Source: Acidimicrobiales bacterium (lineage in GTDB: Bacteria; Actinomycetota; Acidimicrobiia; Acidimicrobiales; SZUA-35). Taken from it: 64,000 bases of DNA. The notes below the pieces were generated by a model. The model was given only the letters and a program-made list of their open reading frames with translations, did not search any database and had not been told where the DNA came from. Below, piece by piece: positions 12,383-50,535 of the stretch (position 1 is its first letter; each line of letters begins with the position of its first letter). The DNA is taken from NCBI GenBank assembly GCA_020628305.1, contig JAHDFH010000001.1, positions 65,306 through 129,305 on the forward strand, in the 5' to 3' direction. A program made the position numbers and the translations under genes.

Positions 12383-13234
12383 TTATTCGGCTTCTTCTGT
12401 CGAATGAGGTCCTGGGCAGGGGCGGTTCTCTGGATCATCTGATCCTTCACCGGTCGCTCCAGGAGTGAAATTGGGGTTGGCGCAGGCTAGAAGGAAGTCA
12501 AAATCGATCTCTGTTTCGGCTCCTGATTCAGCCGCTTCTCGTACGTGTTCTGCCCATTCAGCGTTAGCTTCGGTAGACATATCTTCGCCGCTGAGCGTAG
12601 CCCGTTCGTGGTATATGACCAATTCAAGCTCTTCTTGGGTCAGAGCGTTTAGCTGTGCAGGCATTTGACCAAGTGTTCCAGATACTCGGCGATTGCCATC
12701 TGTACGCTCAGCGCCATAAGCTTCTCCGTTGATTGCTCCTGAACCCCGAGCGACGTGGACCATCATGTCGATAGCTTCCGGAAAGGTTTGAAGCACCTCT
12801 CCATCTGAAAGCTGGTAGCCGGAACCGCCACCACCGTTAGCCCCGTGGCATCCGGCGCAACCTGCGGCAACATAAATTTCTGCTGATTCAACAACTAGCG
12901 GATCTTCTGTTTCAGGCTGTTGAAGAGTCCCAGCTAGGCCATATGCCCAGACAGGGGCTGCAAGCACAACGGGCATGGCCCAGAATGGTATTTTCTTGCG
13001 AGAAGTGTAAGCCTTTATGTATTCGGGCGTTGGTTTGCTTGGCTCTGGTTCTGGATCAAGATAGGGAAGGTCTGCAGTTGGCACAACTGCTGCAGCAGTA
13101 GCAGGAGTCGCTGCAGTAACTGCTGTTGAAGCAGCGGTATCGGCTGCAGGGGCGTCGGCTTCAGCTGGCTTGCCAGTGGCCTTGCTCTTTGCTGCTTTGC
13201 TTCTTTTCAGAAGATGTTCAGGTATTTCGCTCAA
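12383..13234 (-). CDS. membrane-anchored monoheme c-type cytochrome
   Basis: One CAGCH heme motif plus a distal GQMPA Met. TM anchor IPFWAMPVVLAAPVWAYGLAG. Start chosen at TTG 13234 (AAGAGG 6 nt upstream). The ORF is open to 13267. Confidence 0.8.
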   Translation of the reverse strand: MSEIPEHLLKRSKAAKSKATGKPAEADAPAADTAASTAVTAATPATAAAVVPTADLPYLDPEPEPSKPTPEYIKAYTSRKKIPFWAMPVVLAAPVWAYGLAGTLQQPETEDPLVVESAEIYVAAGCAGCHGANGGGGSGYQLSDGEVLQTFPEAIDMMVHVARGSGAINGEAYGAERTDGNRRVSGTLGQMPAQLNALTQEELELVIYHERATLSGEDMSTEANAEWAEHVREAAESGAETEIDFDFLLACANPNFTPGATGEGSDDPENRPCPGPHSTEEAE

Positions 13235-13350
13235 CGTCTGCCTCTTGTGTATAAACCTTCCGCCCAAGAGGCTACCGCGCTGGGCGATTCAATGCACAAC
13301 ATTCGCTTCTGAATCGCGGCATAAGGAACGGTGCAGATCCAGCTGACCAA

Positions 13351-14331
13351 CTATCTGGCAAAGCTTTCCGGTGGCCCGGTTGTCACCGTGAAGTTGTCGA
13401 ACCGGGCATAAGTGGTCTTGCTGGGGGCCCAATCTTGTGTACTGCCGCCATAGAAGGACGAGTAAAGGAATACATCTACGTTAAAGTCGCCACTGGTGCG
13501 CCACAGAATGTCTTTCTCAAGTAGTCGGTGCTCACCATCGACCCAAATTTCAACTTCCCCATTTGAGACGTTCTTGTCATTGATTTTGACCCGCTCAACG
13601 ATTCTGTACCATTGGCCGGCTTCGTAGCGACCGCTAATTGGGTAGCCAACGCCATAGATTGTTGGACGGTTGGGGTGGTAGGCATAAACCGTGAGTTCGC
13701 CATCTGGGCGCCACATGAGTCGGGCTGAGAAACCGTCAGTTCCATCAGCACCTTTGCCTCCCGTTGGGTGGGTGCCGCCAGCAAGCCCTGGAAGCTTTCC
13801 CCCTTTAACCCATTCCCAGCCTGGCTCAAAGAAGACGTCGTAGGTGAGATAGAGCTCGTCTGACCCGGGAAGGTTCTTGGTAGGGGCACTGACACGCGGC
13901 GAACCCTTTTCATAGGGGGTGTAAGCCTGTTTGAGGTATCCGTCTTCGATTGTTAGGGCTTCGTTTGCTGCAAGGTGGTCAAACTCGTAGCCGAAAAGTC
14001 TGGCAAAAAGGTCCTCTGTTACGGGGCCTGAAACAGTTTCGAAATCGACACTGAAGATGGTTTGAGAGCTGGGGGAGGTAGGTGGTTTCGGAGCGGTCGA
14101 GCTTGCTGTGGTTTCCTTACTCGTCGACGTAGTTGTTTCCTCAGGTAGGGGTTCTGTGGTTGTTGGCTGAAATAGTGTTGTGGCTGAACGAGTCTGGATT
14201 GCTGGCCGGATAGTTGAGCTGGCAGTTATTAGCTGTTCAGACGTCTCTTCGGTAGAGGTCGAGGCTGGGGTGCAACCGAAAGCACAGAGCAAAGCAATAC
14301 TGATTGCTAATTTGTAGAACCTTGGTTTCAT
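13351..14331 (-). CDS. secreted lipoprotein with a polysaccharide-lyase-14-like (concanavalin-fold) domain
   Basis: Lipobox LLCAFGC, a Thr/Ser/Pro linker, then GGKLPGLAGGTHPTGGKGADGTDGFSARLMWRPDGELTVYAYH and FYGGS...WAP, recalled as the PF14099 pattern. Confidence 0.45.
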   Translation of the reverse strand: MKPRFYKLAISIALLCAFGCTPASTSTEETSEQLITASSTIRPAIQTRSATTLFQPTTTEPLPEETTTSTSKETTASSTAPKPPTSPSSQTIFSVDFETVSGPVTEDLFARLFGYEFDHLAANEALTIEDGYLKQAYTPYEKGSPRVSAPTKNLPGSDELYLTYDVFFEPGWEWVKGGKLPGLAGGTHPTGGKGADGTDGFSARLMWRPDGELTVYAYHPNRPTIYGVGYPISGRYEAGQWYRIVERVKINDKNVSNGEVEIWVDGEHRLLEKDILWRTSGDFNVDVFLYSSFYGGSTQDWAPSKTTYARFDNFTVTTGPPESFAR

Positions 14332-14489
14332 ACGCCGCCCTTGCAATCAGTTTAGACGATCTGCGCCAATAGATCCATGAAGATGGTTCTATTGGCCCTG
14401 TGGTGCGGGGCAACTTCACATGGAGCAAGCTGAAGCAAAATACTTACGCGAAGATCGCTCACTTTCAATTCAGAACTAGTAGATTATTC

Positions 14490-14975
14490 ATGGCAGTATT
14501 CACTGAGTATTCTTTTGGGTCACCTGTGGTTGCATTTATCTCCTCGCTAATAATTTCATTTCTCATGACGGGTGCCATCTTTTGGTACGCCAAGCGACGC
14601 CCCGTAGGAACCCCGCTGACATGGGGCGAAGCGATGCTTGCATCGGCGTATGTTTTCTTCTTAGTTTTCGTTATCTATGGTGTCGTTCCTCATCAGTGGT
14701 TAACTTGGGCTGAGAACGAGCAAGGTTGGCGCCCCGACAGGCTCTTCTTCGGCTGGGGCGACATTGTGAAGCCCAAAAGTCAGGGCGGGTGGTTTCCCTT
14801 CGACATTACTTACCGGGCGATCTCAGACACGGTGGCCGTTGTAATATACGGCATTTTCTTAAGTGGTCAGATCTGGGTGTGGGCAAAATGGCAGAACCGT
14901 GGCGATGATTCCAAAGCTAAAGCTGCGTTGGTGAAGAAAAGCACTTACGGCAGACCTTTGGTAAAGCAGGGCTAA
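14490..14975 (+). CDS. hypothetical polytopic membrane protein, first gene of the Rieske/cyt b cluster
   Basis: 161 aa from ATG 14490 (track ORF opens at 14400). 3-4 TM helices. Stop lies 3 nt before the ferredoxin gene. Confidence 0.55.
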   Translation: MAVFTEYSFGSPVVAFISSLIISFLMTGAIFWYAKRRPVGTPLTWGEAMLASAYVFFLVFVIYGVVPHQWLTWAENEQGWRPDRLFFGWGDIVKPKSQGGWFPFDITYRAISDTVAVVIYGIFLSGQIWVWAKWQNRGDDSKAKAALVKKSTYGRPLVKQG

Positions 14976-14978
14976 GGC

Positions 14979-15395
14979 ATGGCCGTTACGGATGCTAACC
15001 CTCCACTGCCGGAATTTAGGGACGACTATCTCCTGGTTGAGGTAGATAAGGACTACCTATCTAAAGCGGTTAAGCCCAAGCAGTTCATTCATATCGATCA
15101 GTCGGAGTGTATTGCCTGTGAGGGTTGCGTGGATATTTGCCCTTGGAAGTGTATTCACATGCAGCCAGTTGACGTCATAGAGGAAAGCTACGGCGTTGCT
15201 AAACCAGGAGAAGACCCTGGTGATGCGTTTATATTCACTATTGACGATGATGTCTGCACGCGTTGTGCGCTCTGTGTCGATCGTTGTCCCACGGGCGTGA
15301 TTATTTTAGGAAAGATCGAAGAACCTAAGGGTGGGGGAGATTTGCATCAGAGAACTACCTCTTATGGTTACGGATACGGAATGCGGTTGACGTAA
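14979..15395 (+). CDS. 2x[4Fe-4S] ferredoxin-fold protein
   Basis: Two complete CxxCxxCxxxCP motifs: CIACEGCVDICP and CTRCALCVDRCP. No signal peptide or TM helix. Confidence 0.85.
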   Translation: MAVTDANPPLPEFRDDYLLVEVDKDYLSKAVKPKQFIHIDQSECIACEGCVDICPWKCIHMQPVDVIEESYGVAKPGEDPGDAFIFTIDDDVCTRCALCVDRCPTGVIILGKIEEPKGGGDLHQRTTSYGYGYGMRLT

Positions 15396-15437
15396 AAGCG
15401 TCACATTAGGAAACACACAAAGTAGGATTTGACTTAC

Positions 15438-16229
15438 ATGGCCAGTCCACAAGTTCAAAAAAAATCAATAGCGGAGAGAGTGAGCGACAGCGTAGGCTCT
15501 TTGAGTGATAACGTGCAAGGCTCTCAGGCCTGGAACTCTATTTTTCGTCCAGGCTCAGTCTTCCGCAAAGGCTACACAGACAGTCCTAGAAACCGTTCGT
15601 ATGTGATTATGAACTCTGTTTTGTATCACCTGCATCCGGTGAAGGTGAAAAGGCACGCTGTCAAAGTGAGCTACACGCTATGTCTTGGTGGGTTGAGTTT
15701 TTTCCTCTTCATCTTGTTGACTATCACCGGCATCTTCCTGATGTTCTTCTATACCCCGGATGCCGCTAGAGCTTACGACGACACCTACACAATTGTCTCT
15801 GAAACGTCTCTCGGTTTGATGTTGCGAAATATGCACCGCTGGGGAGCCCATTTAATGGTTATTTCAGTTTTCTTGCATATGGCTCGCGTTTTCTATCATG
15901 GAGCTTACAAAGCTCCTCGAGAGTTTAACTGGGTGATTGGTGTCATTCTCCTCACTTTGACTCTCTTGCTATCTTTCACCGGGTATCTGCTTCCGTGGGA
16001 TCAGCTTGCGCTTTGGGCAGTAACTGTGGGCACTAACATGATGGGCTTTACTCCAGTCATTGGTGACCAGGTTAAGTTCGTTCTTCTCGGCGGTTCGGTT
16101 ATTGGCACAGAGACGTTGCTGCGTTGGTATGTGCTGCACGTACTGTTTGTACCGTTCGTGACGGTAATTTTCATGGCAATTCACTTCTGGCGTGTACGTA
16201 AAGATGGCGGCATCTCAGGACCGCTATAG
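15438..16229 (+). CDS. cytochrome b, N-terminal four-helix (b6-like) subunit
   Basis: His pairs in RNMHRWGAHLM and YVLHV...AIHFWRV. Also FTGYLLPWDQLALWA. Ends after helix D, as in PetB. ATG 15438 is preferred over TTG 15429. Confidence 0.9.
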   Translation: MASPQVQKKSIAERVSDSVGSLSDNVQGSQAWNSIFRPGSVFRKGYTDSPRNRSYVIMNSVLYHLHPVKVKRHAVKVSYTLCLGGLSFFLFILLTITGIFLMFFYTPDAARAYDDTYTIVSETSLGLMLRNMHRWGAHLMVISVFLHMARVFYHGAYKAPREFNWVIGVILLTLTLLLSFTGYLLPWDQLALWAVTVGTNMMGFTPVIGDQVKFVLLGGSVIGTETLLRWYVLHVLFVPFVTVIFMAIHFWRVRKDGGISGPL

Positions 16230-16236
16230 GAGAACA

Positions 16237-16980
16237 ATGGCCGACATTCCAGATCATCTCAAACAGCGTGCCAAAGCCGCTAAAGAAAAAGCAGAAGCGG
16301 CCAAGTCTGATTCTGGCGGTTCTGCCTCTGCGTCTGGTATCCCAGAACATTTACTGAAGCGCTCAAAAGCAGCGAAGTCAAAAGGTGATTCTCCATCTTC
16401 TGATTCTGTAGTTGCCTCAGCTGGCACCGCTCCGGCTGCAGGTGGAGGCGACACCGGTGCTGCCGCAATCCAAACCGGACCCGGTGGCCATACCCAAAGA
16501 CTTCTTACAGTTGTCAAAGCAGGGTCAATTCAAGACATCAAGTCCAAACCACTAGATAAAGTCCACACCTGGCCGCATCTCATAGTGGTGGAATTTGGGG
16601 CAATGCTCGCAGTTACTGCGTTTCTGATCGTGTTCTCAATCTTCGTCAATGCTCCACTCCAACGTCTTGCTGATGTGAACGCTACGCCTAACCCTTCGAA
16701 AGCGCCGTGGTACTTTCTAGGACTTCAAGAGTTGCTCACGCTATTCCACCCTATGGTCGCTGGGGTAACCATTCCGGGAGTTGGACTTTTCGCTTTAATG
16801 CTTGCCCCATATATTGATAAAACAGTTAGCAACAAGCCTGAAGATCGTAAGTTCGCAATTTCCGTATTTACTTTCTTCATGATGTTCTGGGCAATTCTTT
16901 CAATAATCGGCTCTTTCTTTAGAGGCCCCGGTTTCAACTTTGTGTTCCCCTGGGAAGAAGGGATCTTCTTCGAACTCTAA
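16237..16980 (+). CDS. cytochrome b C-terminal part / subunit-IV-like protein with a long N-terminal tail
   Basis: ATG 16237 has AGGAG upstream. KAPWYFLGLQELL (variant of the PEWYF motif) and 3 TM helices. The N-terminal 110 aa are low-complexity and carry two IP(D/E)HL..R.KAAK motifs. Confidence 0.85.
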   Translation: MADIPDHLKQRAKAAKEKAEAAKSDSGGSASASGIPEHLLKRSKAAKSKGDSPSSDSVVASAGTAPAAGGGDTGAAAIQTGPGGHTQRLLTVVKAGSIQDIKSKPLDKVHTWPHLIVVEFGAMLAVTAFLIVFSIFVNAPLQRLADVNATPNPSKAPWYFLGLQELLTLFHPMVAGVTIPGVGLFALMLAPYIDKTVSNKPEDRKFAISVFTFFMMFWAILSIIGSFFRGPGFNFVFPWEEGIFFEL

Positions 16981-16993
16981 GAGGGTGTGAATT

Positions 16994-17842
16994 ATGGTAG
17001 TTTTTTATGCAGTAGGCGCAATAGTTCTTCTGGCTGTGGTTGCAGCTGTGGTTTTGTTTAGAAGGCAAGATCGCGAATTGGCCACCGGTTCTTTGACTGG
17101 AGTAGAGGCTGATCGAAAGAGAATAATTAGAGACAAAGGCGATCTCGAAGGTAAAGACTTTGAAACGCAGGCTCTCGAAAAACGCTCTCAAGAGCTAGCG
17201 CCAGCAGAGCCAGATGGGCCAGTTATCATCCCACCAATGGATCCCGACCAACTTGGTGAGGCAAGACGAGCCTTCCTCAACCGCAGCATCATTGGGGCTG
17301 CAAGCTTAGGGCTAGCGATGCTCGGTGGGGCTATTTTGAAAACCCTTTGGCCGAGTGCAAGTGGTGGATTCGGCGACAAAATTGTCGTTGGTAACGTTGA
17401 CTCGATCAAAGAATCAATTCGCGACAGTGGAGGCTTCTTCTACTTTCCGCTTGGCCGGATGTGGATTACCGAGTATCCGACTTCAGCTGTTGTTAAGGCA
17501 GAAACAAGTTATGGTTTCTACCCTCAGGTAGAGCAGGGGCTAAAGGCTGGAGTGGTTGCTCTATTCCAAACTTGCCCTCACCTGGGCTGCCGAGTTCCTG
17601 AATGTGAAACATCTCAGTGGTTCGAGTGTCCATGTCACGGTTCGCAATACAACAGAGTTGGAGAGAAAAAGGGTGGTCCTGCTCCTCGAGGCATGGATCG
17701 CTTTCCCATGGAAGTTTCCTCTGATGGAGTGCTTACGGTTGATACTGGAACAATCATTCAGGGTCCACCTATTGGCGTAAACACAACTGGTCAAGAAGCG
17801 GAAGGACCAAATTGTCTTTCTGATGGTGGAGGTGAGCACTGA
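16994..17842 (+). CDS. Rieske [2Fe-2S] subunit
   Basis: CPHLGCRV and CPCHGSQY boxes. N-terminal TM helix. Confidence 0.9.
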   Translation: MVVFYAVGAIVLLAVVAAVVLFRRQDRELATGSLTGVEADRKRIIRDKGDLEGKDFETQALEKRSQELAPAEPDGPVIIPPMDPDQLGEARRAFLNRSIIGAASLGLAMLGGAILKTLWPSASGGFGDKIVVGNVDSIKESIRDSGGFFYFPLGRMWITEYPTSAVVKAETSYGFYPQVEQGLKAGVVALFQTCPHLGCRVPECETSQWFECPCHGSQYNRVGEKKGGPAPRGMDRFPMEVSSDGVLTVDTGTIIQGPPIGVNTTGQEAEGPNCLSDGGGEH

Positions 17843-19509
17843 TGGAAGCGCTTTTACTCCAAACAAACTACAGATCAATCGGCATTGCCTTTGCCCTGAT
17901 AACTTTCATTGGCTTTGTTATCATCTTCTTCGCCAACAGTCGTAAAGCTCGTAAAGAAATCGGTAACGAGATTGAGCTTGCTGCCAACCGCAAAGAATAT
18001 TACGACGACGAGGATATGGAAGGCCTGCGCCTTGATCGTTCTTTGTCCTTCGCTTTAGTGTCGTTGTTGTTCATTGCTCTGTCATTTGGTTTCTACATGA
18101 TTGCCGAGCCAGGCCGCCAAGAAGGTGCGGTTCAAAACAAGATCGAGACTTTCCAAAGGCGCGGTGAGGACACCTACGTTAATGGAGCACAATGCGTCAA
18201 CTGTCACGCAGCTGATGGCTCTGGTGGTGGGGCAGCGTATGTGCTCCAAGACGCTGATGGTCAATTTATAGCAAACGCTAACTGGATGGCTCCTGCGTTG
18301 AATAACGTGTTGCTTCGCTACTCAGAAGAAGAGATCACTTACATCCTTAACTTTGGTCGGAATGGCTCGCCGATGGCCGCATGGGGCACGCCTGGTGGAG
18401 GGCCGTTAACCTCTCAAGCTGTACAGAACGTTATTGAGTATTTGAAAACCCTTCAAGTCCAAAGCATCGAACCAACCGACATTGCAGCTGCCGGCAATGA
18501 GAACCCCGATAACAGCGAAAACGATTTGGACGACGAAGAATCTCAAAAGGCTCAGGAAGAAGCCGACCGTCTAACAGCTTCGGTTAGGGCTGAGGTTGAT
18601 AGGTCGCTCGCCGATGGTGAGTTTGCGACGGTCGGGGAGGCCGTGTTTAACCTGGGACTGTACTCAGGGTTTGGAGCGGGATCCTATTCTTGTGCCCGCT
18701 GTCATACATCGGGCTGGTCGCTCGGAATTGATGCGTCCCCGAATGTTCTAGATGAAGGTGTGGCCGCCTGCGGTGGTGGGACGACCGGTATTGGGTTCAA
18801 CTTGTGTGGCGGTTCGATCGAAACTCGCTTCCCCAATGACACTTGGAAGATGCCTGACGGCTCTTGGATGCCGCCCGAAGGCTTAACTAATGACGATGGC
18901 GAATCGATAGTTCTTACAATGGATGGTACTGAAATTGTTCTTGATGAACGAGGCCGCCCAGTCGATGCAGATGGTAACCCGTATCTTGTCTTAACTGATG
19001 GTTTGATTGATGCCCGCTCTGCGGCCCCTGCGGTGGATGAACCAGCTGAAGAGGATGAAATCATCGATGATGAGACTACCGCTGCGGTTGCTGCAGAAGT
19101 CGAAACAGGATCAGCTTTGCTCGGATTGGCTGGGGATTTAGCACAGTGTGACTTTGTTTCAGAGCTGTATACGCCCGCTGACGGAGCAACATATCCAGTG
19201 GATCCAGATTCTGAACCTGTGGTCGGTGAAGACGGTGAGCTCTCTTCACCTGAAGCTTTGAATCCTGATGATTTTTCAGAGCCTGTTTACACTTTGGATT
19301 CTGGACGTCTGGCAAGCGGTTGTGAAATTATCGAGATGCCGGAAAGAACTAGCGACGCCCACTATGACTTCATCTACGATGGGGCTAACGCCGGGCAAGG
19401 CTACGGAAATGGCGGCATGTCGAGCGCTGGTATGATGCCTGGTTTTGGCAAAATGCTACCTCCTGAGTACATCCAAGCAGTAGTCGACTATGAGCGAGGT
19501 CTTGAGTAA
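17842..19509 (+). CDS. membrane-anchored diheme c-type cytochrome (555 aa)
   Basis: Heme motifs CVNCH and CARCH. N-terminal TM helices. Long acidic insertions. The start overlaps the Rieske stop (TGATG). Confidence 0.85.
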   Translation: MEALLLQTNYRSIGIAFALITFIGFVIIFFANSRKARKEIGNEIELAANRKEYYDDEDMEGLRLDRSLSFALVSLLFIALSFGFYMIAEPGRQEGAVQNKIETFQRRGEDTYVNGAQCVNCHAADGSGGGAAYVLQDADGQFIANANWMAPALNNVLLRYSEEEITYILNFGRNGSPMAAWGTPGGGPLTSQAVQNVIEYLKTLQVQSIEPTDIAAAGNENPDNSENDLDDEESQKAQEEADRLTASVRAEVDRSLADGEFATVGEAVFNLGLYSGFGAGSYSCARCHTSGWSLGIDASPNVLDEGVAACGGGTTGIGFNLCGGSIETRFPNDTWKMPDGSWMPPEGLTNDDGESIVLTMDGTEIVLDERGRPVDADGNPYLVLTDGLIDARSAAPAVDEPAEEDEIIDDETTAAVAAEVETGSALLGLAGDLAQCDFVSELYTPADGATYPVDPDSEPVVGEDGELSSPEALNPDDFSEPVYTLDSGRLASGCEIIEMPERTSDAHYDFIYDGANAGQGYGNGGMSSAGMMPGFGKMLPPEYIQAVVDYERGLE

Positions 19510-20408
19510 TGGGTAACACTTTCCTGGCCTTCATCGATGGAGTTGATTTTAATATCTTCTTCAGAGGGCTCTTGTCCACTTTGACGATGTTCGTTGTTCT
19601 GTGCGGTGCTACTTACATGATCATCGCTACCAACGTTGGCGTTCGTAAAGGCATGTTAGTAGCATCAGCTGGATTCTTTGGCTGGATGTTTCTGATGGGA
19701 ATAATATGGACCATTTATGGAGCGGGTTGGGTTGGAGCGACACCAACGTGGGAACTGGTTGAGATCAACCGAGGAGATTTAAGTGTCGCAGAGACTGAGG
19801 AATCTAACGCCCTTGCTGGAGTCGACCTCTCAGAGCTAGTAACGGAGCAAGACCCAGATCTTGCCCAGGCTCAGGCTTTAGAGATCTCTAGAACTCAAGA
19901 TCTATCTGGCTGGGATTTTCTGCCAGCCTCTAACTCCACTCGAGGCGAAGCCCAGTCATCAGTCGATGAATACCTTCTCGAAACAGGTGCCTACGGTTCA
20001 ACTGAGGAATACGTAGCGCTTCAGTTCGGGGCATTCACAACTGGCGGAAAGCCAAAACTGAAAGACGACCCAACTGCAGTTGATAGATTCGTGCATTTCT
20101 TCGACGAGACATTTGCTAATCCGCTTCATAAACAAGAGCTAATAATGATCCAGGTTCAGGGAGCCAAGGATGTGTTCTCTTTCACAGGTGGGACCCCTCC
20201 TGTGGCTGAGATTGACTCCAATAAGGATGTAGTCAGCGTCATCATGGAACGTAATCGTGGTGGCCCAATTCCATCACTAATTAGTGGCTTGAGATTTACG
20301 CCGTTCATGTTCACTGTGGTCAATGGATTGATCTTTCTGATCTGTTCATGGGCGTTGCACAAACGAGATAAGAGAGAAGCGTTGGCCTTGGCGGGAGCGG
20401 CTGCTTGA
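19509..20408 (+). CDS. hypothetical membrane protein linking the bc cluster to nuoA
   Basis: 299 aa with 2 N-terminal TM helices, 1 C-terminal TM helix and a soluble middle. TAATG overlap with the cytochrome c gene and TGATG overlap with nuoA. Confidence 0.6.
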   Translation: MGNTFLAFIDGVDFNIFFRGLLSTLTMFVVLCGATYMIIATNVGVRKGMLVASAGFFGWMFLMGIIWTIYGAGWVGATPTWELVEINRGDLSVAETEESNALAGVDLSELVTEQDPDLAQAQALEISRTQDLSGWDFLPASNSTRGEAQSSVDEYLLETGAYGSTEEYVALQFGAFTTGGKPKLKDDPTAVDRFVHFFDETFANPLHKQELIMIQVQGAKDVFSFTGGTPPVAEIDSNKDVVSVIMERNRGGPIPSLISGLRFTPFMFTVVNGLIFLICSWALHKRDKREALALAGAAA

Positions 20409-20884
20409 TGGAACAGTACCTTCCAATCTTTGCTCTGTTGGTCTTAGCAGTGCTGTTCGCTGCGATCTCGTTTATTGCATCCCGTTTGCTAAGCCCGAGC
20501 CTTTCCACTGTTGAGAAATCAGCGCCGTATGAATGTGGCATAATCCCTAACCAGGAACCATCGGAGCGGTTTCCAGTCAAGTTCTATCTTGTTGCAATGC
20601 TCTTTGTAATATTCGACATTGAGATTATTTTCTTGTACCCATGGGCCGTTGAGTATATGAACTTGGGTGCCGCAGGCTATTTCGCGATTCTGTTGTTCTC
20701 CGCACTAGTTTTCGAATCGTTTATTTATCTGATTTCAAAAGGCGCCCTCGATTGGGGTCCTTTGCAACTCAACCGTAATCAGTCGGCGATAGCTGGAAAG
20801 CCAAACGCTTTTTCTACTGCCACTGCTGGTGTCCGCATCGTTGGCACTGAAGGACGTTTCGAACACGCGAAAGAAGTAGCTTAG
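20408..20884 (+). CDS. nuoA: NADH-quinone oxidoreductase subunit A
   Basis: YECGI...FPVKFYLVAMLFVIFDIEIIFLYPWA. C-terminal extension of about 40 aa. Confidence 0.9.
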   Translation: MEQYLPIFALLVLAVLFAAISFIASRLLSPSLSTVEKSAPYECGIIPNQEPSERFPVKFYLVAMLFVIFDIEIIFLYPWAVEYMNLGAAGYFAILLFSALVFESFIYLISKGALDWGPLQLNRNQSAIAGKPNAFSTATAGVRIVGTEGRFEHAKEVA

Positions 20885-21460
20885 ATGGGCATCTCGGACA
20901 TTCAGAGCCAGGGGATAGAAGGCCTTGACCATAACTTCTTGACAGCGCCCCTTGAAAAGCTTGTTAACTGGTCACGAGCAAGGTCTTCGTGGCCAGCAAC
21001 TTTCGGCCTCGCTTGTTGCGCTATCGAAATGATGGCTACTGGTGGTTCTCATTACGATCTTGCTCGTTTGGGCATGGAAGTATTTAGAGCTTCTCCAAGA
21101 CAGGCAGATGTGATGATTGTGGCGGGACGAGTTAGCCAGAAAATGGCCCCGGTCCTTAGACAGATTTATGACCAGATGATGGAACCTAAGTGGGTTATTT
21201 CCATGGGAGTTTGCGCATCCTCTGGAGGAATGTTCAACAACTATGCAATTGTTCAGGGTGTTGATCAGATTGTGCCGGTCGATGTGTATGCGCCTGGTTG
21301 TCCTCCAGGCCCAGAGACACTGCTTCATGCAATCACAACGCTTCACACTCAAATCGAAAATGGTGAACTTCTCAAACGGCGAGAGGCTAACGGTGGTGCC
21401 GGAGCCGGCATGTACATAGAACAACTAGACGGACAAACGCTAAGCATCGGAGCGGCATAA
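20885..21460 (+). CDS. nuoB: NADH-quinone oxidoreductase subunit B
   Basis: N2-cluster Cys motifs: [19 protein letters not shown] and PGCPP. Confidence 0.95.
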
Positions 21461-21464
21461 GTTC

Positions 21465-21543
21465 GGTAGGGGCGGTCCTATCCGGCTTTTGCTGTCATCC
21501 CTCGGCATCAAGCCTCAGGGAATGACTTGGTGGTCAGGTGTGG
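21465..21543 (+). repeat. bipartite intergenic repeat (module A + module B), copy 1
   Basis: GGTAGGGGCGGTCCTATCCGGCTTTT followed by GTCATCCCTCGGCATCAAGCCTCAGGGAATGACTTGGTGGTCAGGTGTGG. The B half is nearly identical to 38681-38734 and the A half to 39513-39539. Confidence 0.8.
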
Positions 21544-22352
21544 CGTACCCATCCTTCAGGGGAACCCAAATTAGGCATGGCAGTTTCGCCCTGAGCGTCA
21601 GGGGAAGACCGATAGCAGCGCACTCGGTTTACCTTCTCCTTGACACCTGAAAGCCAGAGAGATTCTTTGACTACTAAGCGGCGTTCAGCAATTTCCTCCT
21701 TCAAGCGCCCAGCAGCACCGTGTTCGAGGTTCCAGTTCTCCGTAGCATCTCCGAGTACCACCTCAGCTAGCCGCGTTATTTGAGCGTAACGTTCCATACA
21801 GACGGTGGCGATTTCGCTGAACAATACGTGATCTGTGGTTGTAAAGGCGATGTAGCACAGAAGCTCAGCAACTAGATCATCTAGCCTCAATTTGCTGGTG
21901 GTATCCAGCTCAGGTCGAAGAGCAACTTCCAGCTCGACTTTCGGGAAGGCCTCAGCTAGATCGACCAAAATAGTCACCCACCAAGTTGAGCCTTCGCTCG
22001 AAAAGGCATAGTTCTGGACGAGTGAGTCAAGATCAAGACCTCTTTTGAGGCGAGGGGAGAAGAGCGTGAAGCCTAGGCCCGAGGCTTGGAGAGAGTTGAG
22101 TGTTAGTTGTCTTGATTTATCGTCAAGGTTCAGAAGCGATACATTGTGTTTCAGCATTGCCCTGGATGTTCTTTCCAACCGTTCGAAACCCAGGAGGGCT
22201 AGGACGAGGTCCTCATACGGAATTCTGCCATGTCTGAGTAGCTTGAGGAATTCATCACGGTCGTCGTTAAAGAGCCTAAGATGGTCCTCAATTCCCCTCC
22301 ATGCAGCAATGGTGATTATCGGTTCCGCCATTAGTCGAAGTCTAGACAGCAA
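21534..22352 (-). CDS. hypothetical protein (272 aa), antisense to the nuo operon
   Basis: Intact ORF with no recognisable motif. The last approximately 10 nt of the ORF, including its stop codon, lie within repeat copy 21465-21543. Confidence 0.55.
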   Translation of the reverse strand: MLSRLRLMAEPIITIAAWRGIEDHLRLFNDDRDEFLKLLRHGRIPYEDLVLALLGFERLERTSRAMLKHNVSLLNLDDKSRQLTLNSLQASGLGFTLFSPRLKRGLDLDSLVQNYAFSSEGSTWWVTILVDLAEAFPKVELEVALRPELDTTSKLRLDDLVAELLCYIAFTTTDHVLFSEIATVCMERYAQITRLAEVVLGDATENWNLEHGAAGRLKEEIAERRLVVKESLWLSGVKEKVNRVRCYRSSPDAQGETAMPNLGSPEGWVRHT

Positions 22353-22450
22353 ACATCGAAAAAGTACCTATATCAGTGGTCAGAAATGTTGGTCAGGGTA
22401 GAGTTGAGCTCTGTGATCCGCCAAGCTAGTTTGTCAGTCCTGGAGAATCG

Positions 22451-22990
22451 ATGAGCGATTCAATTCCAGAGGTTGAAGATGTCGAAATTGAGATCCATGG
22501 AAGCAATTCTGAGGTGCTATTTGGCTGCCCCGTAAGCTACTCGATGGGTCAGACTGTTATCCACCCAAGTAGGAGTCACTGGCTTCAGGTCGCTACTAAC
22601 TTGCTTAACGACGGCTATAACATGTGTGTCGATTTGACTGCCGTTGACTACTTATCCAATGACACTAGGGAACTGCCAGAAGGCATAGTTCTTGAACGGT
22701 TCGAGGTTGTAGCTTCGTTTGTATCCCATGAAAGAGCTGAGCGCCTTAGGGCTCGAGTGCAAATTTCTGGATCTGATCCGACTATCGATTCCCTCTACGA
22801 GATTTATCCAGGAACAGACTTTCTAGAACGAGAAGTTTATGACATGTTTGGCATCACTTTCGAAGGCCATCCTGATTTGTCCCGAATCTTGATGCCAGAA
22901 GAGTGGCAGGGGCATCCACTGCGCAAAGACTTTGATGTTGGGGCTATCCCAGTGCAGTTTAAGTATCCACAGGGTGAGAAATATGATTGA
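22451..22990 (+). CDS. nuoC: NADH-quinone oxidoreductase subunit C
   Basis: EREVYDMFGITFEGHPDLSRILMPEEWQGHPLRKDF. Confidence 0.9.
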   Translation: MSDSIPEVEDVEIEIHGSNSEVLFGCPVSYSMGQTVIHPSRSHWLQVATNLLNDGYNMCVDLTAVDYLSNDTRELPEGIVLERFEVVASFVSHERAERLRARVQISGSDPTIDSLYEIYPGTDFLEREVYDMFGITFEGHPDLSRILMPEEWQGHPLRKDFDVGAIPVQFKYPQGEKYD

Positions 22991-24272
22991 TTCACCTGAG
23001 AAGCAGGTAGTTACTTCCCAGCTTGGGAAGCTTCCGAAGCTAGATTCTGTTCTTCGTATGTCTGAGGTGCAGGCGGCTGAAGCTGGCTCTTCTGCTTATC
23101 AAAACGATGACGAGACCATGATTATCAACATGGGGCCATCACACCCCTCAACGCACGGTGTGCTTCGTTTAATGCTCGAGCTTAAGGGTGAAATGGTGCT
23201 TCGGTCCAAGCCAATTATGGGGTACCTCCATACTGGCATGGAAAAAACCGGCGAAGAGCTTACCTACTTGCAGGGTGCAACAAATGTCACCCGCATGGAC
23301 TACGCCTCGCCTCTCTTCAATGAGCTAGCGTTTTCTCTGGCCGTTGAAAAACTTGTCGGGATGGAAATCCCAGAGCGAGCTACCTGGATTCGCATGCTGA
23401 TGTGTGAGCTCAACCGCATCTCCTCTCATTTGTTGTTTATGGCAACGAATGGCATGGATTTGGGTGCTGTGTCAATGATGATCTACGGCTGGCGAGAACG
23501 AGAGCAAGTTCTTCGATTCTTCCAAAAAGTTACAGGCCTGAGAATGAATCACAACTACATCCGCCCAGGGGGAGTGGCAGCCGATTTGCCACCGGGTTGG
23601 GAAGAAGATGTCAACTCCTTGATGGAGATGCTTCCTCCAAGGCTCGAAGAGTATGACACGCTAATGACGAACCAGCCGATTTGGCGGGAACGCCTTCAAG
23701 GTGTTGGGTTCTTAAGCAAAGAAGAGGCACTGGCTTTGTCGATTACTGGGCCACTCTTACGCTCTGCTGGGGTTGCCTGGGATTTGCGCAGCACAATGCC
23801 TTATCTTGCATATGACCAAGTTGATTTCGATGTTTTGGTTGGTAGTTACGGAGATTGCTTTGACCGGTACTCCATTCGCCTCAACGAAATTCGTGAATCG
23901 ATGAAAATCGTAAAGCAGATCGTCGAGAAAATGCCGGAGGGTGACTACCGTGTTCAGGATAAAAAGATCACGCCGCCACCTCGAGCTCGGATTGATGAGT
24001 CGATGGAAGCTTTGATCCACCATTTTAAGATCTTTACAGAGGGCTACAAAGTTCCGGCAGGCGAAGTATATGTGGCAGTAGAGTCTCCACGAGGCGAGCT
24101 GGGCTGCTACATAGTTTCAGATGGCTCATCAAAGCCTTACCGCATGCATATTCGTGGCCCTAGCTTTGTCAACCTTCAAGTGCTTCCACATATGTTGGCC
24201 AACTCTCAGATTGCTGATGCAGTAGCCATTCTTTCAAGTGTTGATCCAATTCTTGGCGAGGTAGATAGATGA
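22983..24272 (+). CDS. nuoD: NADH-quinone oxidoreductase subunit D
   Basis: NMGPSHPSTHGVLRL and C-terminal SVDPILGEVDR. ATG 22983 overlaps the nuoC stop. The track ORF's earlier start lies inside nuoC. Confidence 0.95.
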   Translation: MIDSPEKQVVTSQLGKLPKLDSVLRMSEVQAAEAGSSAYQNDDETMIINMGPSHPSTHGVLRLMLELKGEMVLRSKPIMGYLHTGMEKTGEELTYLQGATNVTRMDYASPLFNELAFSLAVEKLVGMEIPERATWIRMLMCELNRISSHLLFMATNGMDLGAVSMMIYGWREREQVLRFFQKVTGLRMNHNYIRPGGVAADLPPGWEEDVNSLMEMLPPRLEEYDTLMTNQPIWRERLQGVGFLSKEEALALSITGPLLRSAGVAWDLRSTMPYLAYDQVDFDVLVGSYGDCFDRYSIRLNEIRESMKIVKQIVEKMPEGDYRVQDKKITPPPRARIDESMEALIHHFKIFTEGYKVPAGEVYVAVESPRGELGCYIVSDGSSKPYRMHIRGPSFVNLQVLPHMLANSQIADAVAILSSVDPILGEVDR

Positions 24273-24907
24273 GTCGTTTAACTTCTGCTGCCGTGATTGA
24301 AGCTGAGGAGATTATTGCCCGCTATCCGAGGAAGAAATCGGCCCTCATTCCTTTGCTGCATTTGGCTCAGGCTCAGGATGGTTACGTCGCTGACGACGCA
24401 ATGGAACACATTGCGGAGTTGCTGGATATCACACCAGTCGAAGTTCTTGGGACGTGCTCATTCTATGAAATGTTTAAGAGAGAGCCTGTTGGTAAGTATC
24501 TAGTAAACATCTGCACCAATATTTCGTGCCAGCTGATGGGTGGCGAAGAGCTCCTCCACCATGCAGAAAAGACGCTAGGGATCAAGTCTGGTGGAACAAC
24601 TGAAGACGGCATGTTTACCATTGAAGATGTTGAATGTATTGCAGCTTGTACCGAAGCTCCCTGTATGCAGGTGAACTATCGCTATGCCGGACGTTTGGAC
24701 GAGGTCCGTTTCGACAAGATAGTTTCTGAGATAAGAGAAGGCAAGCTTGCCATACCAGCCCACGGCAATCTTGGTGATGTGAAACAGCACATCCCACAAG
24801 AACGCGAGTCTGGCATCAAGCCTCCAGAACAAACTGAAGCTCCTGCCTGGTTTGTTCGCCGCATGTCAGAATCTGAGAGTGAGGTAACTATCAATGCCAA
24901 CAAATAA
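24269..24907 (+). CDS. nuoE: NADH-quinone oxidoreductase subunit E
   Basis: 2Fe-2S Cys pattern: GTCSFYEMF, CTNISCQLMG, CIAACTEAPCMQVN. Confidence 0.9.
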   Translation: MSRLTSAAVIEAEEIIARYPRKKSALIPLLHLAQAQDGYVADDAMEHIAELLDITPVEVLGTCSFYEMFKREPVGKYLVNICTNISCQLMGGEELLHHAEKTLGIKSGGTTEDGMFTIEDVECIAACTEAPCMQVNYRYAGRLDEVRFDKIVSEIREGKLAIPAHGNLGDVKQHIPQERESGIKPPEQTEAPAWFVRRMSESESEVTINANK

Positions 24908-26285
24908 CTACCTCCCTCACCTTGATGGCTATGTGGACAACGAAGGTCCAAAGATTGTCACCTCAAGATTTAACGATCCAAACAACTACAAGATTTCTAA
25001 CTACAAAGCCTCCGGCGGTTACCAAGCTCTTGAATCAGCACTCGACATATCACCGGATGCTGTAGCCGCTGAGATCAAAGATGCGATTCTCCTCGGTCGT
25101 GGGGGTGCGGGCTTTCCTGCTGGCCTTAAGTGGGGCTTCCTGCCCGATGTCTACCCGCGTTACCTCGTGGTCAATGGTGACGAATCTGAACCTGGAACCT
25201 ACAAAGATAGACTCTTGATGGAGCATGATCCTCACCAACTTATTGAGGGTTGCCTGATTACTTGCTATGCGCTGGGTATTGAGACTTGCTTTCTTTATGT
25301 GAGGGGCGAGATGGCTCTTGCTCAAGAAAGGCTTGCCCAAGCCCTAAACGATGCCTACGCTCAAGGCTATATTGGCAAAAACATCTATGGAACTGACGTT
25401 GGAATCGACATCGTTCTGCACTGGGGAGCTGGAGCTTACATAGTTGGCGAAGAAACAGCACTGATTGAATCACTCGAAGGCAATCGTGGGATGCCTCGCC
25501 TTAAGCCCCCTTTCTTTCCAGCGGTGAAGGGCGTCTACATGAAGCCAACCATTGTTAACAATGTTGAGACGCTTTCAAACGTGCCTTGGATTGTTACTAA
25601 CGGTGCTGATAAGTACAAGGAGTTTGGTTCGGAGGCGTCTCCTGGTTCGCGCATGTTGGCCATCTCAGGTCATGTGAATAGGCCTGGCGTGTACGAAGTG
25701 GAACAGGGCGAAGTGACATTTAGGGAGCTTTTCTACGGTGATAACTACTGTCAGGGCATCCGAAACGATGGAGATGTCAAGATGTTCATCCCCGGCGGAG
25801 GCTCAGCCCCATGGTTCTTTGAAGAACAACTCGATCTGCCTTTAGAAGCTAAAGCTGTTGGAGCGGCAGGTTCTATGCTTGGGTCGGGAGCCATTGTGGT
25901 GATGGATCAAACAACTGACGCGGTTAAGGCCTGTTTGCGAGTAGTTCGTTTCTTTGCAAGAGAATCGTGTGGTAAGTGCACTCCCTGTCGTGAAGGCACT
26001 TCTTGGGAAGAGAAGATTTTGCAGCGCATTCTAGATGGTGCTGGCCGCCCAGAAGATCTCGATTTGCTACTTGATGTTGGTTCACAAATTTCTCCAGGAG
26101 ATTACCCGAAAGCGGCTTGGGAAGCTGAAGGTCTTGAAGCGGTTCCGTTCCCACCCAAGCAAACCACCATCTGTCCGTTGGGGCCATCTTCTGTAGCTCC
26201 AATCACTTCAGCCTTACGCCGCTTCCGGCCAGAGTTTGAAGCTAAGATTGCCGCCGGACGCACAACAGTTGGGGCGAGTTCATGA
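24894..26285 (+). CDS. nuoF: NADH-quinone oxidoreductase subunit F
   Basis: GRGGAGFPAGLKW, NGDESEPGTYKDR (FMN/NADH site) and ESCGKCTPCREG (N3 cluster). Confidence 0.95.
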   Translation: MPTNNYLPHLDGYVDNEGPKIVTSRFNDPNNYKISNYKASGGYQALESALDISPDAVAAEIKDAILLGRGGAGFPAGLKWGFLPDVYPRYLVVNGDESEPGTYKDRLLMEHDPHQLIEGCLITCYALGIETCFLYVRGEMALAQERLAQALNDAYAQGYIGKNIYGTDVGIDIVLHWGAGAYIVGEETALIESLEGNRGMPRLKPPFFPAVKGVYMKPTIVNNVETLSNVPWIVTNGADKYKEFGSEASPGSRMLAISGHVNRPGVYEVEQGEVTFRELFYGDNYCQGIRNDGDVKMFIPGGGSAPWFFEEQLDLPLEAKAVGAAGSMLGSGAIVVMDQTTDAVKACLRVVRFFARESCGKCTPCREGTSWEEKILQRILDGAGRPEDLDLLLDVGSQISPGDYPKAAWEAEGLEAVPFPPKQTTICPLGPSSVAPITSALRRFRPEFEAKIAAGRTTVGASS

Positions 26286-28699: not shown

Positions 28700-29985
28700 T
28701 TGGCGCTCAACCATACCTAGCAGATGGCGTCGACCTTGGTGACATCGTGCTAGCCGTAAGCAAGGCCACCATTGCGTTTGTAGTTCTTTTAGTATCAGTG
28801 ATGTTGATGGTCTGGTTTGAGCGTAAGGTTGTGAGTCGCTTACAAAACCGTATTGGACCTAATGTTGCTGGACCGTTCGGAATCTTTCAAACACTTGCTG
28901 ATGGTATAAAGCTGTTCTTTAAAGAAGATCTCATTCCGGAAAGATCAGACCCACTTATTTTTAAACTTGCACCGTACTTGTCGCTGGTTCCCGCGTTTTT
29001 AACTTTCACAATTGTTCCTATCGCTGGGGATTTCAACGCAGATAACAATGGATCAGTAACCATCTTTGGGCGTGAAACTTTTCTTCAAGTAGCTGACGCT
29101 CCGGTTGGTGTGTTGCTGTTTCTTGCAATGAGTTCAGTTGGAGTTTACGGAATTATGCTTGCTGGTTGGGCTTCAGGTTCTAAATATCCTCTCATAGGAT
29201 CCGTCAGAGCTACAGCACAAGCCATCAGTTACGAAGCTGCACTTGGTCTATCTTTAGTTTCGGTCATCATTTTGTCGGGCTCATTGAGTACTAACGCTAT
29301 TGTTGATGTCCAAGCCGGCGCAGGCGCGGGATTCTTACCAAATTGGCACCTGATCACATCTGCATTCGTGCCATTTATAGTTTTTGTTATTGCAGGAACT
29401 GCAGAACTGAATCGTCCACCGTTCGACTTAGTCGAAGCAGAGCAAGAACTCGTCGGAGGTTTCCACACAGAGTACTCATCCATCCGTTTTGCACTTTTCT
29501 TCTTAGCTGAGTTCATGAATACAGTCACCATGTCAGCGATTATTGTGACTCTATTCCTGGGCGGACCAGCTGGCCCTAACCTTGGACTGCTGCCAGGCTG
29601 GGCTTGGGGCTTTGTCTGGTTCTTTGCGAAGCTTCTTGTATTCTTGTTTATGTTCGTATGGTTCAGAGCAACGCTTCCTCGTCTGCGATACGACCAGCTA
29701 ATGAACCTGGGCTGGAAGGTGTTGATTCCCGTATCGCTTGGCTGGCTATTGCTGCTATCTGGCCTACGCTTAGCTTCAGAAAATTCTGCTGGAGTAACTG
29801 AACTTCGTTTTATAGACTCTGACTCATTCAACACGGTGGTGTTCGCTGGCTTAGCAGTCTCAATTTTCTTGGTTGCCACTTTGTTGCTTTCAACGGCATT
29901 GCGAGACTCTAAAAAGAACAGACTCAAAGAACATGGCCTTGTAATGGTCGATGGCTCAGAGCCAATCAACACGGGAGCTTCGTAA
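28696..29985 (+). CDS. nuoH: NADH-quinone oxidoreductase subunit H (with a C-terminal extension)
   Basis: RKVVSRLQNRIGPN, GWASGSKYPLIGSVRA, ELNRPPFDLVEAEQELVGGFHTEYS. ATG 28696 overlaps the nuoG stop. Confidence 0.95.
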   Translation: MIGAQPYLADGVDLGDIVLAVSKATIAFVVLLVSVMLMVWFERKVVSRLQNRIGPNVAGPFGIFQTLADGIKLFFKEDLIPERSDPLIFKLAPYLSLVPAFLTFTIVPIAGDFNADNNGSVTIFGRETFLQVADAPVGVLLFLAMSSVGVYGIMLAGWASGSKYPLIGSVRATAQAISYEAALGLSLVSVIILSGSLSTNAIVDVQAGAGAGFLPNWHLITSAFVPFIVFVIAGTAELNRPPFDLVEAEQELVGGFHTEYSSIRFALFFLAEFMNTVTMSAIIVTLFLGGPAGPNLGLLPGWAWGFVWFFAKLLVFLFMFVWFRATLPRLRYDQLMNLGWKVLIPVSLGWLLLLSGLRLASENSAGVTELRFIDSDSFNTVVFAGLAVSIFLVATLLLSTALRDSKKNRLKEHGLVMVDGSEPINTGAS

Positions 29986-30620
29986 TGGGTTACCTAGCTG
30001 GATTTCCAATCACTCTTAAGAAATGGTTTGAAGGTGTTACAACCAAAAACTATCGTGCTGGTAAAGGTGGCAAATCAGATGTGAAGGCTCCCAAGCCCGA
30101 TCGTCTACATGGTCGACATGTGTTGAACCGCTACGAAGATGGCTTAGAGAAATGTATTGGCTGCGAACTTTGTGCGGGTGTTTGCCCAGCAAAGTGTATA
30201 TATGTTCGAGGTGCCGACAACAATCCCACAGATCCAACATCTCCTGGTGAGCGTTTTGGATTTGTATACGAGATTAACTATTTGCGTTGTATTCACTGCG
30301 ACTTGTGCGTTGAAGCCTGCCCAACTGAGGCGATCACAGAATCAAAGCTGTTCGAATTTTCCTTCGAAGATCGCAAGAGTGCGATTTATACGAAGAACGA
30401 GCTTCTTGTAGACGAAGACGGCAAACCTCAGCAGCTCCCTTGGGAAGATTGGCGTGAAGGCGAAGACAAAGCAACATCTGGTTGGATGAGAGCAACCGCT
30501 CCATCGGGGGATTCCAATTATGTTGGCAAGGTTGCATGGTCGGGAGAGCTTGGCTACGGCGTGCGTCAACCTGAGTCAGTTGAGCTGACCATTAAGCCAA
30601 AGTCAGGAGACAGTAAATGA
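29985..30620 (+). CDS. nuoI: NADH-quinone oxidoreductase subunit I
   Basis: CIGCELCAGVCP and CIHCDLCVEACP. Confidence 0.9.
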   Translation: MGYLAGFPITLKKWFEGVTTKNYRAGKGGKSDVKAPKPDRLHGRHVLNRYEDGLEKCIGCELCAGVCPAKCIYVRGADNNPTDPTSPGERFGFVYEINYLRCIHCDLCVEACPTEAITESKLFEFSFEDRKSAIYTKNELLVDEDGKPQQLPWEDWREGEDKATSGWMRATAPSGDSNYVGKVAWSGELGYGVRQPESVELTIKPKSGDSK

Positions 30621-31485: not shown

Positions 31486-31488
31486 GAG

Positions 31489-49190: not shown

Positions 49191-49191
49191 G

Positions 49192-50228: not shown

Positions 50229-50232
50229 TCGG

Positions 50233-50532: not shown

Positions 50533-50535
50533 CCG

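Follow-up and report, generated by a model that had tools for sequence, protein, structure and literature searches.

The window analysed here is a 64,000-nucleotide stretch of an Acidimicrobiales genome (contig JAHDFH010000001.1). At positions 14490–21460 it carries nine tightly packed genes on the forward strand, as identified from an open reading frame (ORF) list and a junction script, in which the putative components of a Rieske/cytochrome b complex, among them a small ferredoxin, run directly into the first genes of complex I. In order, these are M161 (14490–14975; 161 residues, three predicted transmembrane (TM) helices, family-less); Fd (14979–15395; 138 residues, a 2x[4Fe-4S] ferredoxin with Fer4 matches); a four-helix cytochrome b6 of 266 residues (from a TTG at 15429 or an ATG at 15438 to 16229; Pfam Cytochrome_B); a subunit IV-like protein, SUIV (16237–16980; PetD-like, Pfam Cytochrom_B_C, three TM helices); a Rieske [2Fe-2S] protein (16994–17842; Pfam Rieske); a dihaem cytochrome c of 555 residues (17842–19509; Pfam Cytochrome_CBB3 and Cytochrom_C, haem motifs CVNCH and CARCH); M299 (19509–20408; 299 residues, three TM helices, family-less), which closes the conserved module; nuoA (from an ATG at 20408 or a TTG at 20405 to 20884; NCBIfam NuoA, Pfam Oxidored_q4); and nuoB (20885–21460; NCBIfam NuoB, Pfam Oxidored_q6). 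The ORF list and junction script reproduced the gene order and junctions of the original prediction: the first gaps are +3, +33 (from the TTG start at 15429; +42 with the ATG at 15438), +7 and +13 nucleotides (nt), followed by three 1-nt stop/start overlaps (TGATG, TAATG, TGATG) and a 0-nt junction. The module had been described as translationally fused to nuoA and nuoB; the stop and start codons do overlap, but there is no fused protein. Promoter and terminator scans of the window gave results no better than shuffled sequence, and Rfam returned zero matches.

Fd contains the Fer4 dicluster motifs CIACEGCVDICP and CTRCALCVDRCP (Pfam, NCBIfam). A hydropathy scan confirmed that it lacks a hydrophobic segment or a signal-like N-terminus, and its predicted location is cytoplasmic. 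In an alignment of 30 orthologues the eight cluster cysteines are invariant and the mean column identity is 82%. Two stretches outside the cluster motifs, the N-terminal tail DANPP.P.F..DY.L.EV and the C-terminal tail GD..QR...GY.YGMRL, are likewise invariant, as expected of a bound subunit. An AlphaFold2 model built from this shallow alignment was unusable (predicted local distance difference test score, pLDDT, 42); a 77-sequence alignment with distant homologues included gave a pLDDT of 70.9, with the ferredoxin core (residues 35–112) at 73–87 and the tails at low confidence. Foldseek comparison of this model with the PDB returned PscB, FwdF, HdrA, NuoI/NdhI and PsaC, and a sequence profile search FwdF, MvhB and NuoI/NdhI. 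As modelled, Fd is a bacterial dicluster ferredoxin with docking extensions, and nothing more specific: the 2x[4Fe-4S] fold and docking extensions are common to dicluster subunits of membrane complexes (PscB, PsaC, NuoI/NdhI) and to polyferredoxin modules (FwdF, MvhB), the likeness is generic (E ~1e-3, TM-score ~0.4), and the partner complex differs.

Public records label the Fd family NADH-quinone oxidoreductase subunit I (NuoI), PreA or ferredoxin, and NuoI is its top NCBIfam match, as would suit a diverged NuoI/NdhI-type paralogue, or a generic ferredoxin present here by chance. We regard this explanation as very improbable. The score of Fd against the NuoI model TIGR01971 is 41.8 bits for a cutoff of 113; genuine NuoI genes are present in the window, that of the complex I operon lying between nuoH and nuoJ (29985–30620, forward strand; NCBIfam); and in more than 90 loci, drawn from several lineages, the gene for Fd is invariably found between those for M161 and b6, a synteny that effectively refutes this explanation. 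Fd is hence distinct from the complex I subunit, which corrects a common annotation of the family as NuoI or generic ferredoxin.

Conservation of the arrangement was evaluated by tblastn of the window proteins against 85 Acidimicrobiia loci, read as far as each contig reaches. All 85 have the same gene order: a divergently transcribed monohaem cytochrome c, then M161, Fd, b6, SUIV, Rieske, dihaem cytochrome c, M299, nuoA, nuoB, nuoC and nuoD. The arrangement is therefore non-random, and the association of Fd and both membrane genes with the split cytochrome b and Rieske genes, first suggested from the window, is borne out in every locus. Identity to the window protein is 79–89% for b6, 71–90% for NuoB, 72–89% for Fd, 70–83% for NuoD, 54–81% for SUIV, 46–78% for the Rieske protein, 39–70% for M161, 34–58% for the dihaem cytochrome c and 27–56% for M299, so that conservation of Fd is on par with that of b6 and NuoB across the class. 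The Fd family comprises more than 2100 homologous protein clusters, the best 120 of which are 137–141 residues long, 74–100% identical and labelled Acidimicrobiales or Microthrixaceae. In a scan at one genome per species Fd is present in at least 597 genomes, and the best 80 of these are essentially all Acidimicrobiia (Iamiaceae, Microthrixaceae, Ilumatobacter and Aldehydirespiratoraceae). The source labels of the homologues are Actinomycetota or Acidimicrobiia, plus one Methylomirabilales bin.

A profile search over 1.8 billion representative proteins recovered distant full-length Fd homologues of 122–149 residues that are just 35–44% identical, and the synteny extends to these: five distant actinobacterial-type lineages (L086, L089/L090, L091, L092 and L093) have the same module order, namely a small membrane protein, Fd, the N-terminal part of cytochrome b, SUIV with an APWY motif, Rieske, dihaem cytochrome c and a membrane protein of 167–341 residues. 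Their b6 is 66% identical to that of the window and their SUIV core 54–61%, and the counterparts of M161 and M299 are weakly yet recognisably related and keep their positions. Candidate natural fusions of M161 with Fd and of Fd with b6 in the representative library turned out on inspection to be frameshifted reads from noisy assemblies. Around the distant modules lie genes for cytochrome c maturation, for an oxidase of the COX1+FixO (cbb3-like) kind and for a regulator resembling Rex. The Rex-type gene (Put_DNA-bind_N and CoA_binding domains) lies directly downstream of the module in L089, L092 and L093; in one Acidimicrobiales locus (L005, 1–301) it is found near hem genes, upstream of the module. 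This neighbour hints at NADH/NAD-dependent regulation.

No nuo genes follow the module in L086, L089, L091, L092 or L093, and the conserved unit is the seven-gene module without nuo. Linkage to complex I is an order-level gene-order trait of Acidimicrobiales, with a median M299–nuoA gap of 18 nt in 65 loci. A short gap in this order and none of the linkage in the distant lineages argue for co-transcription and not for physical association. Co-expression with complex I, as originally proposed, is consistent with the tight junction but is lineage-specific, and the juxtaposition with nuoA–N is consistent with co-transcription in Acidimicrobiales, with no shared machine. The M299/nuoA stop–start overlap in the window and the short gap in most Acidimicrobiales could also be read as the trace of a coupled complex I–complex III machine, in which Fd bridges both complexes or serves complex I. 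Physical association with complex I was the stronger suggestion of the original prediction. Such a coupled machine is quite improbable: gene adjacency does not show contact, five other lineages have the seven-gene module with no nuo genes beside it, complex I has its own full subunit set including NuoI, and the nuo operon of the window genome is cut after nuoB by an ORF on the opposite strand.

The core subunits indicate the kind of complex. The b-haem ligands of b6, H136/H150 and H237/H252, align with H86/H100 and H187/H202 of the b6 of b6f complexes, and the best solved relative is cyanobacterial b6 (E 9e-46). C85 in the sequence LCLGG (motif CxGG) aligns with the haem-ci cysteine Cys35 of b6 and is conserved in orthologues; the haem-ci pocket residues C85, F253 and R257 are kept, and a covalent haem ci on C85 is predicted from the conserved CxGG. 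The C-terminus ends ...RKDGGISGPL, and 67% of the b6 columns are conserved at 95% or more in 84 sequences. As judged by NCBIfam scores, b6 passes the cytb_ExtP model (296.6 bits, cutoff 290) and fails bc1_QcrB_actin (124.5, cutoff 500), the Rieske protein fails bc1_QcrA_actin (30.1, cutoff 275), and SUIV matches memb_ExtQ (ExtQ) only weakly (54.6, cutoff 150). The Qo motif of SUIV is APWY and not PEWY (sequence SKAPWYFLGLQE), which is kept in the distant lineages, and its long cytoplasmic N-terminal extension contains two IP(D/E)HLxxR(A/S)KAAK motifs. The split b, the CxGG, the His spacing of b6 and the APWY together place the cytochrome b, by sequence, in the known APWY clade/subfamily G. Kao and Hunte, in describing this clade, already listed the split cytochrome b of Ilumatobacter and remarked that none of its members had been characterised (PMC4122944); the group is subfamily G of Dibrova et al. 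(PMC5600118).

The Rieske protein has the cluster boxes CPHLGC and CPCHGSQY, an N-terminal TM helix and a second, Tat-like anchor (RRAFLNRS); its best solved relative is a Kuenenia Rieske protein (9rk4_A, E 4e-14), followed by b6f PetC. Ser and Tyr in box II are associated with a high midpoint potential in Rieske proteins (PMC12954380), and by these residues the window protein would be of the high-potential type. The dihaem cytochrome c, syntenic in all loci, is membrane-anchored with two predicted N-terminal TM segments and contains an acidic low-complexity insert. From these features, 14490–20408 is predicted to encode a seven-subunit b6f-like menaquinol:cytochrome c oxidoreductase of the APWY/subfamily G type.

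Comparison with solved or well-studied complexes brings out what is shared and what is not. Cyanobacterial and chloroplast b6f complexes have the split b6 and SUIV, the four-His spacing of b6, Cys35/CxGG, the C-terminus ...RK.GISGPL and the Rieske box CPCHGSQY in common with the window system, but they have PEWY in place of APWY, lack the ~50-residue N-terminal extension of b6 and use cytochrome f where the window has a dihaem cytochrome c; PetG/L/M/N genes are missing from the window, and its operon has a dedicated ferredoxin gene, whereas in b6f an interaction with ferredoxin/FNR is just proposed. The QcrCAB (bcc) complexes of Mycobacterium and Corynebacterium, also Actinomycetota, likewise pair a dihaem cytochrome c with a Rieske protein that has more than one TM segment; QcrB, however, is unsplit (~535–556 residues, against 266 for the window b6), and unlike the window system these complexes have neither haem ci nor ferredoxin. 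Geobacter ExtOPQ and other APWY-clade complexes share APWY and CxGG (PMC4122944), and b6 passes the ExtP model, but the window has no porin-cytochrome genes and its SUIV falls far below the ExtQ cutoff; the Ext naming refers to a selenite/tellurite phenotype that is irrelevant to the window complex.

The closest parallel to the ferredoxin subunit comes from anammox bacteria, in which Rieske/cytochrome b complexes with a cytoplasmic iron–sulphur (FeS)-flavoprotein subunit are known and the NAD(P) oxidoreductase subunit migrates together with the rest of the complex (PMC5600118, PMC12954380). The premise of the original prediction, that neither bc1 nor b6f complexes contain a dicluster ferredoxin, is correct for the canonical complexes but does not extend to these. 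Among the 1.8 billion representatives, the best single-stretch relatives of Fd outside its own family and the repetitive polyferredoxins are the C-terminal ~110 residues of ~600-residue GltD-like proteins (P0248, P0254, P0261 and P0264; domains Fer4_20 and Pyr_redox_2), with 35–42% identity over 84–117 residues (P0248, P0254) and inserts of similar length between the clusters. A Rieske gene adjoins two of the four: it lies directly downstream of the P0248 gene, where its product matches the Kuenenia Rieske protein 9rk3_A (E 2e-31), and the P0261 gene is followed by Rieske, cytochrome b and multihaem cytochrome c genes. The P0254 gene is followed by multihaem cytochromes, and P0264 lies on an error-prone contig and is uninformative. 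As judged from gene content, the GltD-like/Rieske arrangement is that of the anammox Rieske/cytochrome b complexes. The 85 loci contain no GltD-like FAD/NAD(P) gene (Pyr_redox_2 or Fer4_20) in the module, and Fd consists of Fer4 domains alone; in evolution it would represent the cytochrome b-proximal domain of an anammox-type NAD(P) oxidoreductase subunit, minus the flavoprotein part. A Fer4 gene near a plain Rieske-b-SUIV cluster of another lineage was also considered; it encodes an unrelated polyferredoxin and is no counterpart of Fd.

Kuenenia stuttgartiensis Kuste4569–4574 and Kustd1480–1485 have a cytochrome b placed, through proxy sequences, in the same subfamily (split b, N-terminal HxHP extension, RxRK) and an n-side (cytoplasmic) dicluster ferredoxin domain homologous to Fd, and the Kuenenia Rieske protein, the best solved relative of that in the window, is likewise of the high-potential type with Ser (PMC12954380). 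In contrast to the anammox subunit, Fd is free-standing at 138 residues, with neither the GltD-like FAD/NAD(P) domain nor the Fer4_20 clusters. The window has a dihaem cytochrome c (two CxxCH) against a hexa- or octahaem cytochrome c, three TM helices in SUIV against five, and M161 and M299 as extra membrane proteins, and its host is an aerobic actinobacterium, with complex I or cbb3-like oxidases as neighbours of the module.

The n-side N-terminal extension of b6 carries an invariant W.S.FR and HxHP (H67, H69). In a subfamily alignment of sequences from Planctomycetes, Nitrospirota, Tectomicrobia, Myxococcota and Sericytochromatia together with the actinobacterial forms, W.S.FR, HxHP and RxRKD are all invariant, and the cytochrome b beside P0261 is 53% identical to the window b6 over residues 24–265, N-terminal extension included. 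In members with the long loop, 204 residues separate the first HxHP histidine from the second RxRK arginine, the same spacing as for His43/Arg247 of Kuste4571 and His62/Arg266 of Kustd1481; in AlphaFold3 models these pairs surround an extra b-type haem on the dimer axis, by the FeS chain of the oxidoreductase (PMC12954380). In the window protein H67, R257 and K258 are invariant, and His67/Arg257 were equated with Kuenenia His43/Arg247 by numbering through proxy sequences. In the actinobacterial forms the CxGG cysteine is retained, a 14-residue loop is missing and there is a 6-residue insertion near the N-terminus. In a GltD-linked cluster (L094, 2959–4548) the cytochrome b is a long fused form of 529 residues in which WGLGG replaces CxGG, and haem ci and an n-side FeS partner therefore do not always co-occur.

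The constant presence in the module of Fd, a relative of the docking domain of the anammox complexes, suggests that electrons could move between the complex and the cell interior. We propose, with a probability of roughly 65%, that Fd is a true electron-transfer subunit on the n-side that links haem bH/ci to a cytoplasmic partner; its binding to the complex and the path and direction of electrons are inferred from gene content, motifs, synteny, conservation and homology. The p-side would operate like that of other Rieske/cytochrome b complexes: quinol would be oxidised at a Qo site built from b6 and SUIV (APWY), and the p-side electron would pass from the Rieske cluster via the dihaem cytochrome c to a terminal oxidase, a last step which the divergent anchored cytochrome c may join. 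Fd would dock on the cytoplasmic face through its conserved N- and C-terminal tails, the docking surface being the extended N-terminus of b6, SUIV and probably M161 with its cytoplasmic C-terminal tail, and would conduct electrons between haem bH/ci and a soluble redox partner in the cytoplasm. The route may include an additional haem between the monomers, bound by His67, such as the models of the anammox complexes contain. The original prediction of an undescribed Rieske/cytochrome b variant with a cytoplasmic FeS module is thus retained in that the FeS-module reading is the best one; the APWY clade and the idea of an n-side FeS module are already known.

Two directions of flow can be envisaged. 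In the exit branch, oxidation of quinol by a high-potential-type Rieske centre would send a low-potential electron out to acceptors of the ferredoxin type, a route that competes with Qi; in the entry branch, reduced ferredoxin would donate via haem ci to menaquinone, which is equally compatible with the anatomy and leaves the Q cycle undisturbed. Menaquinone is the quinone reported for cultured Acidimicrobiia. Because a high-potential-type Rieske protein combined with menaquinone implies a very low-potential b-haem chain, the exit branch is favoured, although we regard the split as near even and the lean as slight. The same argument has been made for the anammox complexes (PMC12954380).

Several points weigh against Fd as an electron-transfer subunit of this kind. 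Its fold matches are generic and its tails are modelled at low confidence; ferredoxin domains are promiscuous, and the identity to the GltD-like domains is supportive, not conclusive. The correspondence with His43 comes from proxy numbering and not from an alignment to Kuste4571, and the extra haem is itself just an AlphaFold3 prediction. The quinone is taken from cultured relatives, and the Rieske potential is a prediction from the box motif. This Fd is missing from the Rieske-b-SUIV cluster of at least one lineage within the same cytochrome b subfamily, which makes Fd an add-on that defines a sub-type, not an obligatory part of the fold. In a different role, Fd would be co-transcribed with the module but no stable subunit of the complex, acting as a soluble ferredoxin or in the maturation or assembly of its haems or FeS clusters, and M161 and M299 would be assembly factors, for instance for haem-ci attachment. 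Consistent with such a role, neither membrane protein has a family match in Pfam, NCBIfam or the PDB, the Trp-rich loop of M161 recalls haem-handling proteins, and distant modules adjoin cytochrome c maturation genes. We nevertheless consider it unlikely: (i) Fd is conserved like the catalytic core, with invariant tails outside the cluster motifs, which is unusual for a diffusing ferredoxin or a chaperone; (ii) the sequences most closely related to it are domains of subunits that migrate together with the anammox complexes (PMC12954380); (iii) Pfam gives no match to the CCB haem-ci maturation families; and (iv) M161 is predicted to have its Trp-rich loop on the p-side, away from haem ci on the opposite face.

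The original prediction had also listed two unknown membrane subunits, for which Pfam, NCBIfam and PDB profile searches found nothing credible. A hydropathy scan of M161 gives three TM segments, a Trp-rich outer loop (PHQWLTWAE) and a conserved cytoplasmic C-terminal YGRPL. M161 has zero matches in Pfam and NCBIfam and no credible PDB relative by profile search; its gene is always directly 5' of that of Fd, with a median gap of 4 nt, and weak, position-consistent homologues occur in the distant modules. M161 is a candidate accessory subunit or anchor for Fd. M299 has two N-terminal TM helices, a soluble domain of ~190 residues that is probably extracytoplasmic and a C-terminal TM helix; family and profile searches found no Pfam, NCBIfam or PDB relative, and its position and architecture are constant in Acidimicrobiia and the distant modules. 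Together, M161 and M299 define two new conserved membrane protein families linked to complex III.

On the opposite strand, at 12383–13267, lies the gene for the membrane-anchored monohaem cytochrome c (Pfam Cytochrom_C), divergent from the module; nearly every one of the 85 loci has a homologue just upstream, on the other strand. This protein is a likely electron acceptor or shuttle of the complex, and it has an N-terminal cytoplasmic motif, (S)EIPEHLLKRSKAAK, in common with SUIV. In the form (T/S)EIP(E/D)HL(L/R)KR(S/A)..AK the motif occurs twice at the N-terminus of SUIV (16237–16400, forward strand) and once at that of the cytochrome c (13180–13267, reverse strand), and it is found nowhere else in the window. 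Both proteins conserve it across Acidimicrobiales; the distant lineages lack it. The two proteins may in this way offer the same docking peptide to a cytoplasmic partner, conceivably Fd. Between the cytochrome c gene and M161, a gene for a lipoprotein-like polysaccharide lyase of family 14 occupies 13351–14346 (reverse strand); the two flanking genes are adjacent in most related loci, so the lyase gene looks like a local insertion.

The literature searched yielded no account of a free-standing ferredoxin in the complex of Acidimicrobiia, nor of the two companion membrane families, the universality of the module in Acidimicrobiia and related Actinomycetota, or its fixed nuo linkage in Acidimicrobiales. 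Oceans, lakes, soils and activated sludge harbour Acidimicrobiia and other deep Actinomycetota as abundant aerobes, and cultured aerobic hosts of the module include Ilumatobacter, Iamia and Acidimicrobium. The module touches on open questions about b6f-type complexes, namely the role of haem ci and a direct feed of ferredoxin into the complex, and on the idea, proposed for anammox bacteria, of an uphill transfer of electrons to NAD(P)+ by Rieske/cytochrome b complexes. Its wide distribution, with a minimal ferredoxin-only n-side subunit, a haem-ci-type b and a high-potential-type Rieske protein, could render both testable. A bolder proposal, which we offer tentatively and at odds distinctly below even, is that the main complex III of Acidimicrobiia and deep Actinomycetota is a branched device, with a 2x[4Fe-4S] subunit that stays bound to it and passes electrons to or from haem ci, possibly via an extra axial haem on His67. 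Such a device would either generate a low-potential reductant from menaquinol by Qo-site bifurcation against the high-potential Rieske centre or act as a built-in ferredoxin:menaquinone reductase. If true, it would amount to a naturally occurring, stable form of the route from ferredoxin to haem ci that has long been debated for b6f cyclic electron flow, and to a counterpart, free of flavin, of the anammox complexes proposed to generate NAD(P)H.

Downstream of the module, the rest of the 14-subunit complex I operon, nuoC to nuoN, extends over 22451–36613 on the forward strand (NCBIfam NuoC, D, E, F, G, H, I, J, L and N). It is separated from nuoB by a 990-nt interruption (21461–22450), absent from the earlier description, which carries a 272-residue ORF on the opposite strand (21534–22352). 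Elsewhere nuoB and nuoC overlap or abut (median gap −1 nt in 62 related loci). The ORF has no homologue in the 85 loci, zero matches in NCBIfam, PADLOC (defence) and PHROGs (phage), and no flanking repeats. With nuoB and nuoC split in this way, nuoA and nuoB are here linked more tightly to the bc module than to the remaining nuo genes.

Further along the forward strand, 45386–55902 holds a second complex I-like operon with a nuoA-like gene (45386–45784), nuoB, nuoC, nuoD, nuoH, a NuoI-like Fer4 gene, nuoJ and genes for three antiporter-like subunits. With nuoE, nuoF and nuoG missing, it corresponds to an 11-subunit NDH-1 minus the N-module. NDH-1 without the N-module is often thought to use ferredoxin rather than NADH, and a ferredoxin-type second NDH-1 would fit a respiratory role for low-potential carriers in this organism. 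Directly upstream of this operon, on the reverse strand, lies a small ORF (44785–45114) with a GIY-YIG-like N-terminus (YIMTNK..VLYVGVT).

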